From positions 128,001 through 192,000 of the forward strand of contig JANJXX010000002.1 of NCBI GenBank assembly GCA_024720975.1: DNA of 64,000 bases. Reading direction: 5' to 3'. The position numbers were made by a program, and so were the translations under genes. This DNA is from Thermoproteota archaeon. GTDB taxonomy: Archaea > Asgardarchaeota > Njordarchaeia > Njordarchaeales > Panguiarchaeaceae. Below, piece after piece: positions 1 through 62,102 of the stretch; the stretch's first letter is position 1; each line of letters begins with the position of its first letter. Below the pieces are notes generated by a model. The model saw only the letters and a program-made list of their open reading frames with translations. It searched no databases and had not been told where the DNA came from.

Positions 1-252
1 TGTTATATGCTACCCGCTCTTTTAAAATTTATTATTCATGATGTTAATTATGGAAAGACTTTGATGTACTTCTCGTTGGTCGTCGTAATTATTACAACCA
101 GAAGATTTTTAATATGAACTTTTGAATGCTATCTAGCAGAAGTATCTTACTTTCCTAGCTTTGATTTATTACTATAAATATTGTGTCGATTTTTATATTC
201 CTAAATATTGACTGAGAGACTAACTTGAACGCAAAACTGGTGAAAAATAAAA

Positions 253-705
253 ATGCCACTGAAACCAGAGGAAGTGGAAAAATTTTTAAGTAATACTCCA
301 CCGAAATGGTTGGAATTCACCTACAGAGGTTACACAATTAAGGAGCTTTTAACCATGCCATTGGATGAATTGGCGAAGATCGCTCCAGCTAGGATACGTA
401 GAAAAATACTGAGATTTATTAACGGGAATGGTGGCCTAACAATAATGGAGCGCAGACTATTAGACAAGATAAAAAAGTACCATGAACGCGGTATAAAGAA
501 ACCGATAAAGACACACTGTAGAGATTTTCCAATTCTCCCAGAAATGATTGGCATGCGTTTTCTAGTCCATAATGGAAAGGAGTTCGTCGAGGTCCACATA
601 ACCCCATGGCATTTATTCAACCGACTCGGAGATTTTGCACCGACTACAAAATTCGTCCAGCACGGTGGTGTTAAGAAGGCCGGAACTGAAAGAAAGGAAA
701 AGTAA
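253..705 (+). CDS. rps19: 30S ribosomal protein uS19
   Basis: FTYRG, IKTHCRDFPILPEMIG, HNGKEFV, RLGDFAPT motifs; GGTGA SD upstream. Confidence 0.96.
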   Translation: MPLKPEEVEKFLSNTPPKWLEFTYRGYTIKELLTMPLDELAKIAPARIRRKILRFINGNGGLTIMERRLLDKIKKYHERGIKKPIKTHCRDFPILPEMIGMRFLVHNGKEFVEVHITPWHLFNRLGDFAPTTKFVQHGGVKKAGTERKEK

Positions 706-17636: not shown

Positions 17637-18551
17637 TTACAGGCTAGTCATTAAACTGAGAGAAAGCGCGGCCAAGAGAGGAAAGAGTATGTTATCATTA
17701 ATTGTTATGCGAGAAGCACCATTTATAAAATCAAGTATCGCCACTATTAAAGACGCCGGTATGGCAATCCACCCCACGATGAGATAGCCAGCAAGAGAAC
17801 CTGTGATGAAGTTCGCTAAGAATCCTTCCAAACTCCTATCGTTTAGTGCTATTCTTCTGCACTTCTTACCGATTATACATGCAGCCAAGTCAGCTAAAAA
17901 TGCAATGGCTATTGCTGCAGCAACTATATCATCATGAGGAAAGAATAACAACGCAACAAGATAAACTGCCGCTGCTGAATATAAATATGAAGCCAATTGA
18001 TTAAGTTCTTTCTCCCTTAACAATACACCAAAAATCGCAGGTTTATAATTGAGTCTCAAAAACTCAATAAAAGTAAACAGCATCAATAGCGCAAGCGCAA
18101 CGGCAAACAACAAAAGACACAAAAAGCCCTCATCCCGCTTTGTAATGAATATCCCAAATGTTGCATATGTACCATCAATGACAAAATTGTATATTTGACG
18201 GTAAAGATGTTTTGGAACAAATAATGCTAGGGCAATTAAATGAAAAGTCTTACGCTTAACTTCATCAATATATGTTTTATTATTTACTACTTTTATCTCG
18301 ACGCGTCCTGTAGCAAATGTTATGAAAATAACTATAAGAATCACGACTGGCAATATAAAGGCAGCAGCGATAGCTAGAAAATATTCCTCTGCCGGCGTGA
18401 ATGGATTCATTCGAATAATATAAAGCAACCCCCACATCATGAGACCTACCAGAAACGCTTCACTTTGAATGCTAGCATGCTTCTTTAGGGCTATGTAGCT
18501 TATAATCGCTGTCATTAGAACTTGAGCCAGTATTAGAAACACTACTTGCAC
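17637..18551 (-). CDS. CTP-dependent polyprenol/diacylglycerol kinase family membrane protein (dolichol/phytol kinase-like)
   Basis: KRKTFHL, EFLRL, LREKE, DLAACIIGK, RSLEG, NDN motifs; multiple TM segments. Confidence 0.85.
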   Translation of the reverse strand: MQVVFLILAQVLMTAIISYIALKKHASIQSEAFLVGLMMWGLLYIIRMNPFTPAEEYFLAIAAAFILPVVILIVIFITFATGRVEIKVVNNKTYIDEVKRKTFHLIALALFVPKHLYRQIYNFVIDGTYATFGIFITKRDEGFLCLLLFAVALALLMLFTFIEFLRLNYKPAIFGVLLREKELNQLASYLYSAAAVYLVALLFFPHDDIVAAAIAIAFLADLAACIIGKKCRRIALNDRSLEGFLANFITGSLAGYLIVGWIAIPASLIVAILDFINGASRITINDNILFPLLAALSLSLMTSL

Positions 18552-18671
18552 CAGGTCAACAGTAGCGGCTAAAACTTATCCAAAGGTTTAAAAGTAAAGT
18601 CGGGGATTGCGTGATAAAGTCGAATTAGTAAATCTTAATCGTACATAATAAAGGAATATAAAAACCCAATA

Positions 18672-18953
18672 CTATACAATACTTTTTATAGCCTCTACGA
18701 TTCGCTTTCCCCTGTCTGTTATCCTTATTGTCCATGCATTAACTCTTGGAGTTATCTTCTTTACAGCAATTCTAACAAGACCAACTTCAGCCAGGAGTAA
18801 AACTGCCTTTCTCACTGCTTTATACTTTGAAAAGCCCAAGTGAATCAATATGTCAGTGAGCTTCATTTCCCCGTATTTGTCTAGGAGGTATAGCACTAAT
18901 ACTGAAAATGGCGAAGAGAGTGCTTGTAGTATAAGCTCTAGACTCAAATACAA
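18672..18953 (-). CDS. Winged helix-turn-helix DNA-binding protein (ArsR/MarR-like)
   Basis: VLYLLDKYGEMKLTDI...LAEVGLV...ITDRGK wHTH pattern. Confidence 0.8.
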   Translation of the reverse strand: MYLSLELILQALSSPFSVLVLYLLDKYGEMKLTDILIHLGFSKYKAVRKAVLLLAEVGLVRIAVKKITPRVNAWTIRITDRGKRIVEAIKSIV

Positions 18954-19265
18954 CCCCCAATAATCATAGAGTAAAAATAGTTAGAAAGACTTAAAAACGT
19001 AGAATACGAAACATGAGGCACTGCATTGACTCTAATAGATCCCAGAAAAACACAGAACTAAAGTCTCTTAATGTATACAATAAGACGATTTAATAATAGT
19101 CTGATACTGTGAATTTCACAAAAGGGTGTTTCAACCTATTACATTTAGCCAACAAAAATCATCAGTAAGCACCCTGTATAACAGACATCAACTTCACAAG
19201 TGCCACTTCCTGTGAACAAAACTTGTTAACTTTGCGAATCTATTGAACCTAGCTAGCATCGTTTC

Positions 19266-19285
19266 TCCAGTGGAAATGGGGGGTC
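19266..19285 (+). promoter_or_regulatory. Origin recognition box (ORB)
   Basis: TCCAGTGGAAATGGGGGGTC matches the archaeal ORB consensus TCCA-n3-GAAA plus G-string. Confidence 0.8.
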
Positions 19286-19396
19286 TTGAAAAAACAGACT
19301 AGAATCAGACTTTCAGAGACAATATAATTGCTAGAGGCATATCTGAAAGGCTCAACAGTTTCTACAAGAACTCAGTGACCCAAGTGAATCCCTGTA

Positions 19397-19418
19397 GACC
19401 CCTGGTCTTCCTATATAG
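19397..19418 (-). promoter_or_regulatory. Degenerate ORB, inverted relative to the 19266 box
   Basis: Reverse complement CTATATAGGAAGACCAGGGGTC (GGAA-n5-GGGGTC). Confidence 0.45.
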
Positions 19419-19625
19419 TTAATATCAACATATTTGTGAATCGTGCTGTTATACGTGAACTATACGCGAAGCATATCCTAGTTTCACATTCTCTAACTTC
19501 CAATAGTGAAGTTAACTATCCACCTAACAGCTTAGATTTTAGTTCCATGATTGAATGCTTCTTCTCTGTAGAAAGTCGTCTTTGGCGGGGCTTTTTGTTA
19601 TTGGTGTTCGGATGTTATTGGGTGC

Positions 19626-19646
19626 TTCAATGGAATTTAAGGGGTC
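19626..19646 (+). promoter_or_regulatory. Degenerate ORB
   Basis: TTCAATGGAATTTAAGGGGTC aligns with TCCAGTGGAAATGGGGGGTC. Confidence 0.55.
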
Positions 19647-19973
19647 ATCACATTCACTTGCGAAGATAGTTAGGTAAATAAGGATTCCTGTAAATTGCCC
19701 ATGGTGGGAGAATGTCGTTGTATTTGTCCTCAGCTGGTGCCATATGTAAGTCAAGTAGCAAAATTGTCTGATTAACTGCCGAAGTATGGCATTAATTGAT
19801 TTAGGAGACTTTCACTCGAGGATAAATTACTGACTCCTATTTCCCTAAAGTATTATCTACACTGCTTGCTCATGGTTTTGATTCTGTGAAAGTTAGATAG
19901 CTTAGCATATCTATTCGTGTATTCGTTGCGTATAACGTTCGATATACACTTCACTTTAATTTCACTGCATGAT

Positions 19974-19990
19974 GATTACCATTGGTAATC
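19974..19990. promoter_or_regulatory. Perfect 8-1-8 palindrome, candidate operator
   Basis: GATTACCA-T-TGGTAATC ending 13 bp upstream of the ATG at 20004. Confidence 0.5.
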
Positions 19991-20003
19991 TTGGTAGGAC
20001 TAG

Positions 20004-20486
20004 ATGCCGACATTGAATATTAAAGTGAAAGTAGGAGATACTGAGGTAGAAGTTAAAGCAGATGGTACTTTGGATAAGGAAACTATTCATGCTATTAGGA
20101 GCATCTTAGCCCCTCTCGCGTCTAGAATTCCGTCTGCCGCTGCTGTTAGGGACAATGCTAGTCTGAATAATAACACTGATGACATTGCTGTAAATAGTCA
20201 GGATGCATTTGTGAGGAATGTTAACTTGTATGCCAAATTTAAGGAACTAATGCTTAACGTGTTCAAGCTTGGACAGTGGTTTACGTCTATTGATGCTAAA
20301 GAAGTGTTCCATGATACTTATGGGATCCTTCTGAAGTCGTCAACTGTGACGACATATCTCCGTCGTATGGAGGATGAAGGGCTACTGACGTCTAAGAGAC
20401 AAGGACGCCTATTGCAGTTTAGGATTTCAGCAGTTCCTCTCTATGCAACTCTTGCAGAATCGGAATTTAATGAACTTAAAGCTTAG
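20004..20486 (+). CDS. DNA-binding protein with N-terminal beta-hairpin/helix module and C-terminal winged helix
   Basis: WFTSIDAKEVF...LKSSTVTTYLRRMEDEGLLTSKRQGR wHTH; low-complexity linker. Confidence 0.8.
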   Translation: MPTLNIKVKVGDTEVEVKADGTLDKETIHAIRSILAPLASRIPSAAAVRDNASLNNNTDDIAVNSQDAFVRNVNLYAKFKELMLNVFKLGQWFTSIDAKEVFHDTYGILLKSSTVTTYLRRMEDEGLLTSKRQGRLLQFRISAVPLYATLAESEFNELKA

Positions 20487-37269: not shown

Positions 37270-37488
37270 CCGATGTTATGTGAGTCTATCATGTAATGAT
37301 TTGTTTTAAAGCTTTGGCACTCAGCAAGAGTAAATCCAAAGTAGAGTGAGAAATTTCAACATGGTGGGGACATATAAAACCTTCCAGTATTCCGATTTGA
37401 AAAATTGATGTCTCACTAGTAAGCTTAGCTGAACGATAGGTATAGAAAGAGAAAAAAGATCCAAGAAAGCAGCTAATATGTAATGTTC

Positions 37489-39357
37489 TTATTCTTCGTA
37501 AAGTAGCTTCAAATCCTTGACTCTAGCTTCGGGTGATCGAGCTTTAACTTCATAGGTAATTGTCTTTCTCTCGCCTGGTTTGAGGCTGATTTCCCATCGA
37601 CAGAGCACAGCTCCCTCAGGGGTAACTTCTATCGACTTGGGCTTGGGATTGGCCGACCGCTCATCAAACTCAAAGGTTGTTGGGACTCTATCTGTAATTA
37701 CATGTATTGGGATTGAAATTTGGGACTCGTTGGTCAATGATAGCATTACTTTAAATCGACCTTCCTCGAGTGGTTCAACGTCTTTCTCGACTGTAATTAA
37801 GCGTCTAGCTAAGATTCCGGTAAGTTTAGGTGGTTCTTTGACAGATATTAATCGTGCTTTTGCACCAGGTATCATTGTTATTTCTGCAGATGATCCGAAC
37901 TCATAAACTTTATCCTCTTTAGGATCGATTGAAGTTGTTGTGTATCTTATCCAGATTTTCTCGCCGGGGTTTAAGGGTTCGTCGAAGTAATAACTTATGT
38001 TCGAGATTTTAATAACTAGAGTATTTTGCTCCTCTGGTAAAGATCCCTCGGGCTCGATCTTGATTTCTATAAGTTCTGGAGGTAATCTCGTCTCACCACG
38101 CTTCGAAATGAATACTTGAACGTTGCCTGGAGTGGGTGGTGCGATATCCTCTGGGATTATGTCGCGTACAATTATTTCATCTATTCCTGCAGATCCTAAG
38201 TTTTCAATTACAGTTTCGCTTTCAATTTTTTCCTCGGCGTGAGCTGCTATTTGATTCTCAGCAAGTCCAGCGTAGTATTCTTCATGCTTAACTGAGATTT
38301 TCCTGGAGATTTCGCCCCAAACGACCGGAATCTTGATGTCACCAATTTCTCCTCTGGCTTTGATTGAGTATCTTACGATTGGATGTATTTCGTAGTGAAA
38401 CTCTTGAACGACTTTTGGTTTCGCAGGATTTCTTATTGTTACTGGACCGAGGGTAGCAGTTTGACCAGGTTCGACTCTCACCGGGGCTAGTTTAACGATG
38501 TCGAAGATTCGGATTCCGGGCGCTCGCCGTTCAATTGATCCCTTTATTTTGTGTCCTCCCTCGGCTTCAGTTAGTACTTCTCCCTCGCGAATTTCGATAG
38601 TTGCGCCGACACTAATTGGAGCATGGGATGCATTTGTTATTACCATTGATATATCCCATATGCCGGGAGTTTCTTTCCTTTCTTCGGACAAAATTCGTTC
38701 TGTTACTTTCGGAAGTCCGGTTAATTTGCCGAATCTAAGCCCACTTAGTGTTGTTCCTTCGCAGGTCCACTCATAGGTTATTTTTCCGGTGTTAAAGGCC
38801 TCAATGTCTTCTGGGTGCATCTTTAAGTTTACGGGCAACTCAACTTTTTCTCCAGCGTTAATTTTTGCGTCCCTCCAAACAATTGCATCTTCCATAGTGA
38901 TATATTCACCGGAGGGGGGTGTGACTTCAGTAGGAGCTTTAAACTGCTTATGTAGTTCTTTCTTAACAGTCAGAAGAGCGGGAGCATCAAGCTCATTCGT
39001 AGCTCCTAGAGTGGACTGGATTTCTATAGGTTCGCACCTCAGAGCAAATGGTGATGGAATTTCAGGCGGAAACGTTAAGTTCTCTATTACAGAAAGTCCC
39101 AATTTCTCTGTAGTTATATTGTATTCAATGGTTTTTGTGTCTCCATCGCGAATGGATCCCAAGAAAAGCTCCTTCTCAATGTTAACATTTTCAGTATTTT
39201 GTAGTGTAAGTTGCAGGTCTGAGATTGCACCTCCTGTTAGATTTCTTATGATTATCTTTCCTTTGCTAGTTACTTCAGGATTTTTTAGGCCATAGCCAGC
39301 TTTTACTTCCTGTTCTTCTATGAATTCTATAATGAGTCCTTTTTCCTCTGCAGCCAT
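37489..39357 (-). CDS. Acidic multi-beta-sandwich protein with no signal peptide; N-terminus mu-homology-domain-like
   Basis: Alternating beta pattern; IVWRDAKINAGE, TLSGLRF, W.ISLKPGERKTITYEV motifs; ATG 39357 after GGTG. Confidence 0.6.
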   Translation of the reverse strand: MAAEEKGLIIEFIEEQEVKAGYGLKNPEVTSKGKIIIRNLTGGAISDLQLTLQNTENVNIEKELFLGSIRDGDTKTIEYNITTEKLGLSVIENLTFPPEIPSPFALRCEPIEIQSTLGATNELDAPALLTVKKELHKQFKAPTEVTPPSGEYITMEDAIVWRDAKINAGEKVELPVNLKMHPEDIEAFNTGKITYEWTCEGTTLSGLRFGKLTGLPKVTERILSEERKETPGIWDISMVITNASHAPISVGATIEIREGEVLTEAEGGHKIKGSIERRAPGIRIFDIVKLAPVRVEPGQTATLGPVTIRNPAKPKVVQEFHYEIHPIVRYSIKARGEIGDIKIPVVWGEISRKISVKHEEYYAGLAENQIAAHAEEKIESETVIENLGSAGIDEIIVRDIIPEDIAPPTPGNVQVFISKRGETRLPPELIEIKIEPEGSLPEEQNTLVIKISNISYYFDEPLNPGEKIWIRYTTTSIDPKEDKVYEFGSSAEITMIPGAKARLISVKEPPKLTGILARRLITVEKDVEPLEEGRFKVMLSLTNESQISIPIHVITDRVPTTFEFDERSANPKPKSIEVTPEGAVLCRWEISLKPGERKTITYEVKARSPEARVKDLKLLYEE

Positions 39358-39514
39358 CAGCAACACCTAGCGTTTGTTTTTCCATAAAATCGCATATATA
39401 CTAAAAACTTAGTCGCATTGTAACCAAACATTATAATGTTAACTAGCTTATAAATTAGTAGGTGAGCTTGATTGTTTGATTACTAAGCTGAGCACTGATA
39501 GGTAACAAAAACCA

Positions 39515-40072
39515 TCAGAAGGAGCGCTTAATGAACGCGCTTCGTATCTCGTTAAGGTACCTATCTAATGCTAAAGGATTTACTGTTATGGGATTTAGAG
39601 GATTTCCACAAATGGGACAACAGTAGCCATATGTCTCAACTTCTCTTTCTAAGAATAGAATTTTATCTTGCTTGCAATAATGTAGAATGGATTCGATTTC
39701 GCAAACCTCTGCTAAGCTATGTAAAAGAGCAATAATACTTGAAATAAGTCCACTCACTGTGCGATCAATCTGAACGGGCTCTGTACCGAAAATTACCTCA
39801 ACATATTGGCGCCGGTCTCGCATTTGCAGTGGTTTTTCACCAACTATATACAATAATCCACCATTTGTTAAGGCAGAGACAACTGCACGGGCATTTAAAA
39901 CCGGAAGTCCAGTGTAGATGGTAGATGAACTCTCAGATAAACTACCTCTTGATAGGAGAACAGCAGCTATAGCCTTGCCAAAACTACCAGCTTTGAGCTC
40001 CGCTAATGTAAGGAAAAACCTTCTCAATCTATTTATTCTGCGAAGTATACTGGCTTGTTGAGATGAATCCAA
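39515..40072 (-). CDS. tfe: Transcription factor E alpha-like (divergent)
   Basis: N-terminal wHTH pattern; Zn ribbon YCKQD...YGYCCPICGNPL. Confidence 0.65.
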   Translation of the reverse strand: MDSSQQASILRRINRLRRFFLTLAELKAGSFGKAIAAVLLSRGSLSESSSTIYTGLPVLNARAVVSALTNGGLLYIVGEKPLQMRDRRQYVEVIFGTEPVQIDRTVSGLISSIIALLHSLAEVCEIESILHYCKQDKILFLEREVETYGYCCPICGNPLNPITVNPLALDRYLNEIRSAFIKRSF

Positions 40073-61508: not shown

Positions 61509-62102
61509 GTGACCATATTGAGTACTCAACTGTTAAGAATAAAAATGGTGCTCATCGGAGAGGGTGCTGTAGGCAAAACATCTATTGCAAGAGCTTACCT
61601 TGGACAGGCCTTTACCAGTGGTTATAAAGCTACCATTGGTGCTGACTTCTACGTGAAGAGAGATGTTATCGAGGATGCAGTAATGGGAAAAGTCAATTGC
61701 GAATTTTTAATATGGGATCTGGCAGGACAAGTTCAATTCACACAAGTGAGGCCTCTATATTATAGAGGTGCTAGAGCGGCAATAGCCGTATTTGATATCA
61801 CCAGAAAGGAAACATTCTATGCTCTCCCAAGTTGGATACACGAATTTTGGAAAAATGCAGGTGGAGTATGGCCGCTCATTCTAGTCGGTAATAAAGCTGA
61901 TTTAAGAGGACAACGTGAATGCGTACCACAATCTGTGGGTATGCTCTACGCGCAAAAACTATCGCAGATAATTGGTGTCGAGGTACCCTACGTTGAAACG
62001 TCCGCGCTGACAGGATATAATATTCGTGACGCTTTTCATAAGTTAGTTCTCGTTCTGCTTGCCTACTATAGAAAGAAGTTTCTGCAAAGAATGCAGAAAT
62101 AA
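61509..62102 (+). CDS. Rab-like Ras-superfamily small GTPase (likely start TTG 61518)
   Basis: GEGAVGKTS, TIGADF, IWDLAGQ, YYRGA, FDIT, GNKADL, ETSA. Confidence 0.93.
   Translation: MTILSTQLLRIKMVLIGEGAVGKTSIARAYLGQAFTSGYKATIGADFYVKRDVIEDAVMGKVNCEFLIWDLAGQVQFTQVRPLYYRGARAAIAVFDITRKETFYALPSWIHEFWKNAGGVWPLILVGNKADLRGQRECVPQSVGMLYAQKLSQIIGVEVPYVETSALTGYNIRDAFHKLVLVLLAYYRKKFLQRMQK

Follow-up and report, generated by a model that had tools for sequence, protein, structure and literature searches.

The eukaryotic endomembrane system has adaptor and COPI coats among its hallmarks. Does the cargo-binding domain of such coats, the mu-homology domain (MHD), have a counterpart in archaea? The question is raised by a gene on the minus strand of a 64,000-nucleotide (nt) stretch (contig JANJXX010000002.1 of assembly GCA_024720975.1, positions 128,001 to 192,000; the whole stretch is called the window below) from a hot-spring Asgard archaeon of the Njordarchaeales. 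An earlier note, made from the letters alone, had taken its product of 622 amino acids (aa) for a candidate relative of the cargo-binding subunits of adaptor and COPI coats. We find it probable (roughly 75%) that the protein belongs, as the orthologue of the Njordarchaeales, to a family of soluble and cytoplasmic proteins of all-beta type that spans almost all Asgard archaea, and that its residues ~4-340 form an MHD homologous to those of adaptor protein (AP) mu chains, delta-COP and the muniscins, and serve as a peptide- or partner-binding module.

37489..39357, minus strand: complete coding sequence, 622 aa plus stop (open reading frame and translation), single-copy in the source genome

Translation confirms the single long open reading frame (ORF), which runs from the ATG at 39357 to 37489 (stop included); the plus strand across these positions is full of stops. 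The protein is acidic (100 D+E against 77 K+R, isoelectric point 5.1) and all-beta: DSSP on the AlphaFold2 (AF2) model assigns about 43 strands against two very short helices. As the top 19-residue Kyte-Doolittle mean is just 1.1, there is no transmembrane helix or signal-peptide-like segment. On all these points the earlier description stands.

The evidence that carries the assignment is first of all the predicted fold. The full-length AF2 model, built without templates from a 120-sequence alignment, has a mean predicted local distance difference test score (pLDDT) of 96.9 and a predicted template modelling score of 0.85; residues 1-362 modelled alone reach a pLDDT of 94.7. When the 1-362 model was compared with 48,161 chains, ranks 1-10 were all taken by MHDs, with the following scores:

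mu2: 15.0, 14.9 and 13.9 (AP-2 core)
mu3A: 14.7
mu4: 14.5
delta-COP: 13.9 (bovine) and 13.3 (yeast)
mu1: 13.7
SGIP1: 13.3
Syp1: 11.8

MHDs are therefore the best structural neighbours, clearly above generic immunoglobulin-like (Ig) folds, including those of CARDB or DUF11 type that the earlier note had named as the outcome that would refute it. Foldseek places MHDs at E ~1e-8 with target-normalised template modelling (TM) scores of 0.56-0.65, whereas nominally better integrin matches have a TM score of 0.09 at a root-mean-square deviation (rmsd) of 35. A Foldseek search of the PDB with the full-length model was topped by integrins, ciliary and complement chains (TM scores 0.1-0.2, rmsd 35-65); these were discarded because Ig-domain chains were matched without a common arrangement. 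Alignments made with VIA-align to eight MHD proteins start at model residues 2-6 and end at 339-342, which is the target's last residue, and cover 207-224 of the ~245-265 target residues (83-89%). Subdomain A (its opening part), subdomain B and the strands that close A are matched in this order, so the model has the interdigitated, two-subdomain A-B-A topology of the MHD, as deduced from aligned ranges and counts. The chain would thus build subdomain A, go on to B and come back to close A. The parts of the protein, all on the minus strand, are as follows:

39043..39348, minus strand: residues 4-105, first part of MHD subdomain A, six strands (VIA-align and hhalign/Pfam mapping; DSSP-inferred boundaries)
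38710..39039, minus strand: residues 107-216, equivalent of MHD subdomain B and also a DUF11-type Ig module, with the IVW...TLSGL signature
38680..38709, minus strand: residues 217-226, strand after subdomain B (DSSP strand 218-226), presumed return to A
38416..38679, minus strand: residues 227-314, five-strand insertion of ~90 residues, no counterpart in solved MHDs
38338..38415, minus strand: residues 315-340, closing beta-hairpin of the MHD (DSSP strands 315-324 and 327-338), includes PIVRYS (326-331)
37813..38319, minus strand: residues 347-515, large beta-sandwich, pilin/CnaB/cohesin-like, with a DUF11-like start
37528..37806, minus strand: residues 518-610, C-terminal DUF11/Top6B-C-like Ig domain (Pfam; DUF11 lies there in most relatives)

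The segments in which a likeness to mu chains had been proposed are located as claimed, and the domain said to be inserted before the closing strand proves right in outline (residues 227-314), as do the two further Ig-like modules (347-515 and 518-610). That residues 217-226 return to subdomain A is suggested by the extent to which the MHD targets are covered (207-224 residues of about 250). Within the aligned range of 337 residues, about 113 lack an MHD counterpart; since the Pfam mapping ends at ~214 and the structural alignments reach ~340, the extra piece is placed at roughly 227-314. This insertion carries the best-conserved motif of the family (E226 R227 ... G232 x W234 D235 ... N242 x S244; P314), with N242 and P314 invariant in 48-52 sequences and a conserved Cys (WDC) in the relatives. 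Tentatively, it might enlarge subdomain A into an MG-like sandwich, as second-tier structural matches (model 85..345) hint.

Evidence independent of the fold comes from sequence comparison through relatives. A phmmer search of 1.84 billion representatives returned 125 matches, many of them full-length (590-730 aa). Of 48 full-length homologues with N-terminal coverage that were scanned with Pfam, 41 contain DUF11 (PF01345) and 11 contain Adap_comp_sub (PF00928, the C-terminal domain of mu-adaptins; best E 1.9e-10), while two have HEAT_2 and three a weak Alpha_adaptinC2 match (E about 0.003). The curated threshold of PF00928 (31.6 bits; profile length 259) is exceeded by three relatives: P0051 with 40.9 bits (residues 108-325 on profile positions 12-236 of 259), the L007 ORF with 48.8 bits (residues 35-253 on 16-235) and the L029 ORF with 32.1 bits. 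The 622-aa protein itself does not score above this threshold; it is homologous to proteins that do. In phmmer it matches P0051 at E 1.8e-12 and P0022 at E 1e-19, and the alignment of the Njord clade matches the PF00928-positive set in hhalign at 100% (E 1.6e-44) over 569 collinear columns. Through hhalign and the Pfam mapping, PF00928 profile positions 16-235 fall on residues ~9-214 of the 622-aa protein. When the family profiles were run against all PDB sequences, AP-3, AP-2 and AP-1 mu chains were the best matches (E 0.002-0.06), barring one bacterial DUF11-like protein. The part matched is the IVW...SGL segment (residues ~158-212; AP-3 mu 277-393, AP-2 mu2 301-401), the very segment that had been likened to mu2. 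A profile restricted to the MHD gave no better E-values against PDB sequences than the full-length one.

Subdomain B has a second kinship. In hhalign, residues 107-216 match the C-terminal Ig domain (518-610) at 97.6% (E 2.9e-12) and the large sandwich (347-515) at 94.8% (E 5.4e-8), and in the relatives the PF00928 and PF01345 matches overlap on the subdomain-B part. Given this homology and this overlap, the MHD subdomain B of the family is, on profile comparison, a DUF11-type module.

The family profile has matches (E <= 1e-5) in 374 of 400 Asgard genomes and in 80 of 85 genera; about 346 of the 400 (our count from the table) have one at E <= 1e-33, which requires a multi-domain, essentially full-length match. 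The overall spread is thus ~86-93%, with mostly one to three copies per genome (two to three in many Loki-type genomes, mostly one to two in Njord). Two families have no match at all in this 400-genome scan, one of them consisting of four genomes of 1.3-1.4 Mb that are 93-98% complete. Members with a named source belong to Njord-, Baldr- and Helarchaeota. The MHD-bearing family is close to universal in Asgard archaea, including the Njordarchaeales, where Pfam detects nothing. On one contig two full-length paralogues lie ~7 kb apart (G282:C8:9874-11715 and 18534-20432, locus L032).

Fusions with HEAT repeats also occur. A HEAT_2 block (52-58 bits) stands at the N-terminus of a PF00928-positive MHD (32.1 bits, plus a weak muHD match, PF10291) in L029:1495-3738 (-) and L030:1159-3402 (+), which belong to genomes G068 and G074 of one Asgard lineage (family f13/g23). 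HEAT is the fold of adaptin trunks, so a single chain here combines it with the fold of the cargo domain.

To our knowledge, every characterised MHD (AP mu, delta-COP, muniscins, stonins) is a peptide- or partner-binding adaptor module. Because all of them do so, we infer by analogy that the sheets of the archaeal MHD would offer a docking surface for short linear peptide motifs or for partner proteins; the C-terminal Ig modules could serve as spacers or as extra binding surfaces.

Several observations weigh against this assignment. The 622-aa protein has no PF00928 match even at E 10, and alone it matches no PDB sequence; it is tied to the MHD by structure and, in sequence, by way of its relatives. 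The E-values of the profile-to-PDB matches are weak (0.002 or worse) and these matches cover the subdomain-B part only. Since this part doubles as a DUF11-type Ig module, the sequence signal could to some extent be generic. Both the A-B-A topology and the place assigned to the insertion were worked out from aligned ranges and counts rather than from coordinates. The Arg of PIVRYS, a segment that the earlier note had set beside the WVRY end of mu2, is variable (R/K/T/S) even among close orthologues; the tyrosine-motif (YxxPhi) pocket of mu2 comprises Asp176, Trp421 and Arg423. Also, the 622-aa protein is acidic, unlike the PIP2 (phosphatidylinositol 4,5-bisphosphate)-binding face of mu2. Finally, 21 loci of ~18 kb across the phylum have just the gene itself in common, so that the neighbourhoods offer no operon clue, and longin (PF01217) and Adaptin_N (PF01602) have no match in the source assembly, which at 81% completeness is not evidence of absence.

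Other direct searches with the 622-aa protein gave little. A six-frame search of the source genome with PF00928 had no match. The best Pfam match of the protein alone is Top6b_C (PF18000; 28.0 bits against a cut-off of 28.6, residues 508-608); identity with the C-terminal domain of Top6B was rejected, as the match is below threshold and Ig-generic and no GHKL or transducer domain is present. In NCBIfam the DUF11 repeat TIGR01451 appears at E 0.81, and Pfam gives no PF01345 match. A word-indexed homologue search with the family alignment returned nothing beyond seven close orthologues. In the ESM Atlas the nearest clusters are archaeal and labelled 'DUF11 domain-containing'; with DUF11 clusters excluded, a eukaryotic PF00928/PF10291 cluster becomes the top language-model match, weakly (0.75). 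The C-terminal Ig domain (518-610) has a weak family-profile match to the gamma-adaptin ear (1gyv, E 0.009); this and the Alpha_adaptinC2 matches could be generic Ig similarity.

The alternative that survives best accepts a true MHD homologue and gives it a role outside cargo and membrane traffic, perhaps as a structural or scaffolding element of a cytoplasmic assembly (associated, for instance, with cytoskeleton, envelope or nucleic acid), with eukaryotes recruiting the fold for coats later. We regard this as unlikely; the following would fit it. There is no conserved tie to trafficking genes in the 21 neighbourhoods; the gene is housekeeping-like, mostly single-copy, sits beside ribosomal, helicase and ATPase genes and is near-universal even in small Asgard genomes; and the pilin/cohesin-like sandwich suggests assembly interfaces. 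The likeness of the C-terminal domain to the topoisomerase VI-B Ig domain points the same way, although that match is sub-threshold and of a generic Ig fold. Against a scaffold speak the HEAT fusions found in some lineages and the established binding function of the characterised MHDs, which are all adaptor modules.

Less probable by far is a generic DUF11/CARDB-type Ig array whose likeness to the MHD would be convergence, or a bias of AlphaFold to a known two-sandwich arrangement. It might be argued that the frequency of DUF11 among the homologues (41/48), the DUF11 clusters nearest in the ESM Atlas, the mutual homology of residues 107-216, 347-515 and 518-610, the integrins and other Ig chains that lead the full-length Foldseek search and the missing PF00928 match of the protein alone all fit such an array. 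However, relatives pass PF00928 over profile positions 12-236, including the first subdomain, which is not of DUF11 type, and exclusion of the DUF11 clusters brings the eukaryotic PF00928/PF10291 cluster to the top (weakly, as said). Neither is such an origin exclusive of the MHD assignment, as DUF11-like modules may be what the MHD descends from.

That the protein leaves the cell by a non-classical route and acts at the surface (S-layer or adhesin-like), as many multi-Ig prokaryotic proteins do, is highly improbable: residues 347-515 have pilin-, adhesin- and cohesin-like structural neighbours and DUF11 is generally common in surface proteins, but the 622-aa protein has no signal peptide, transmembrane segment or anchor, none is seen in the N-termini of 30 relatives (charged or HEAT extensions stand there instead), it is acidic, the motif of the relatives holds a conserved Cys (WDC), and all proteins known to have the MHD fold are cytosolic.

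The gene itself looks like a separate transcription unit, judging from the signals that flank it:

39364..39407, minus strand: probable own promoter and ribosome-binding site (read from sequence)
37445..37458, minus strand: oligo-T tract CTTTTTTCTCTTTC, candidate archaeal terminator, 32-45 nt past the stop

Upstream of the ATG lie a T-rich/TATATAT box at 39407-39394, at a distance of 37-43 nt, and the sequence AGGTG at 39368-39364, at a distance of 7 nt. It is because of these promoter- and ribosome-binding-site-like signals and the oligo-T tract downstream that the gene appears to be transcribed on its own. An alternative GTG at 39366, nine bases upstream of the ATG, would yield 625 aa (+3 residues); ATG 39357 is taken as the start because homologues begin there. 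Seven orthologues show 57-82% identity to the protein; close homologues are annotated solely as 'hypothetical protein' and come from Candidatus Njordarchaeota. No paralogue is found by tblastn in the 1.36-Mb, 81%-complete assembly. DNA of the gene recurs in hot-spring metagenomes, and the protein is probably thermostable.

Contigs from RNA libraries give a weak hint of transcription. An identical 222-nt contig is present in the metatranscriptome of the source study, and a 1,924-nt contig, 92% identical, comes from a sediment metatranscriptome of another study (run X12; window 37492-39369). The latter is essentially this gene alone plus ~46 nt upstream (the promoter region) and ends at the stop codon, which hints at expression of the orthologue as a single-gene unit in a related organism, although carry-over of DNA is conceivable. 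As 30 of the 40 listed differences in this contig sit on third codon positions of the 622-aa frame, selection acts on the reading frame; the gene is under purifying selection.

The gene is surrounded by housekeeping genes (Lhr-type helicase, ribosomal protein S17, V-ATPase B, aCPSF1, proteasome subunits and a GPN-loop GTPase), and synteny around it is limited to close kin. Directly upstream lies a 185-aa ORF (window 39515-40072, minus strand) that carries a zinc-ribbon motif of the CPICG type at its C-terminus and matches no Pfam family; it is kept beside the gene only within the genus. The Rab-like GTPase that the earlier note had mentioned for this genome is indeed there: a Ras/Rab-type small GTPase (207 aa) matches PF00071 with 135 bits, and PF00025 with 30.7 bits, at window 61542-62048 (plus strand). 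The source genome has at least eight Arf/Ras-family matches, this one included. As for the adaptor subunits that were searched for, Asgard homologues of the large and small subunits are highly divergent, which limits what PF01602 and PF01217 profile matches can reveal; Adaptin_N candidates are listed for other Njordarchaeales (Eme et al. 2023, PMC10307638).

What may the family tell about the eukaryotic domain? It is possible, but to us a tentative idea only, that it represents the direct prokaryotic forerunner of the eukaryotic MHD, which would have arisen in Asgard archaea from DUF11-type modules, subdomain B being still recognisable as a paralogue of the C-terminal domains, and acted as a cytosolic adaptor for cargo or partners (in some lineages fused to HEAT repeats) before eukaryotes joined it to a longin domain. 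The findings do not show cargo sorting by these archaea; they offer a testable route for the assembly of the cargo-binding domain of coats, and a concrete protein for structure and binding studies.

Proteins of this kind are already known for Asgard archaea, since Eme et al. 2023 (Nature 618:992; PMC10307638) list PF00928 candidates of the same family; they call the occurrence of these sparse and note that no longin domain is fused to them. Their Supplementary Table 3 holds 44 such candidates, none from Njordarchaeales. Most of them (Loki, Hel, Thor, Hermod, Jord) plainly belong to the same family by motifs and length; the L007 ORF is among them, and the Njord clade is collinear with such proteins. 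It differs in lying below Pfam detection, and where the paper says sparse the family profile reaches ~86-93% of the 400 genomes. The Njord clade also lacks the N-terminal extension of 100-230 residues carried by many Loki and Hel paralogues. Some entries of the list are by eye without the family motifs and may be false positives: helix-rich-looking ones from Gerdarchaeales/Heimdallarchaeaceae, two from Lokiarchaeales whose N-termini are hydrophobic, and one of 222 aa from Thorarchaeota. The text of Eme et al. 2023, as far as searched, holds no mention of fold, topology, insertion or DUF11 relation. What Xie et al. 2021 reported as a 'mu/sigma subunit' eukaryotic signature protein corresponds to the longin domain (IPR022775) and not to an MHD; Köstlbacher et al. 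2026 (PMC12962969) still describe Asgard adaptor homologues as patchy, and a 2025 study calls COPI 'extremely primitive' in Asgard. Our literature search on the mu homology domain in Asgard or PF00928 in archaea brought up nothing specific beyond Eme et al. New here are the Pfam-invisible Njord member, the confirmation at fold level, the insertion, the DUF11 kinship and the near-universal spread.

With DUF11/CARDB-type repeats (PF01345, TIGR01451) the protein shares residues 107-216, the start of 347-515 and 518-610, which are homologous to each other, and PF01345 is matched in most of its relatives. DUF11 arrays do not show its first subdomain, the A-B-A path of its chain or its conserved insertion, and in contrast to DUF11 surface repeat proteins it is cytoplasmic.

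With the C-terminal domain of AP mu-adaptins (mu2 1BXX/2XA7/9FIW; mu1, mu3A, mu4) it has the subdomain-B signature W ... SGL and a cytosolic place in common. The identity is 12-17%, the protein is acidic overall, and it has ~90 extra residues before the closing hairpin as well as two extra Ig domains. Its MHD is N-terminal (beginning at residue ~4), whereas theirs is C-terminal, and no longin domain (PF01217) is matched in the 622 residues. We know of no archaeal counterpart to the ligands of delta-COP and the muniscins (WxW / WxxF / DPF-type). Because it has no longin domain, the protein cannot sit in an AP/COPI-type core like mu or delta; hence the kinship with adaptor and COPI subunits proposed at the outset holds for the MHD and does not extend to a whole mu or delta subunit. 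In delta-COP (4O8Q, 5FJW) the MHD follows a longin domain, and in the muniscins FCHo/SGIP1/Syp1 (5AWR, 3G9H; muHD PF10291) it follows an F-BAR domain and a linker. At most, the layout of the Njordarchaeales protein would by analogy be closer to that of proteins with the MHD as a free appendage, such as the muniscins and the MHD of delta-COP.

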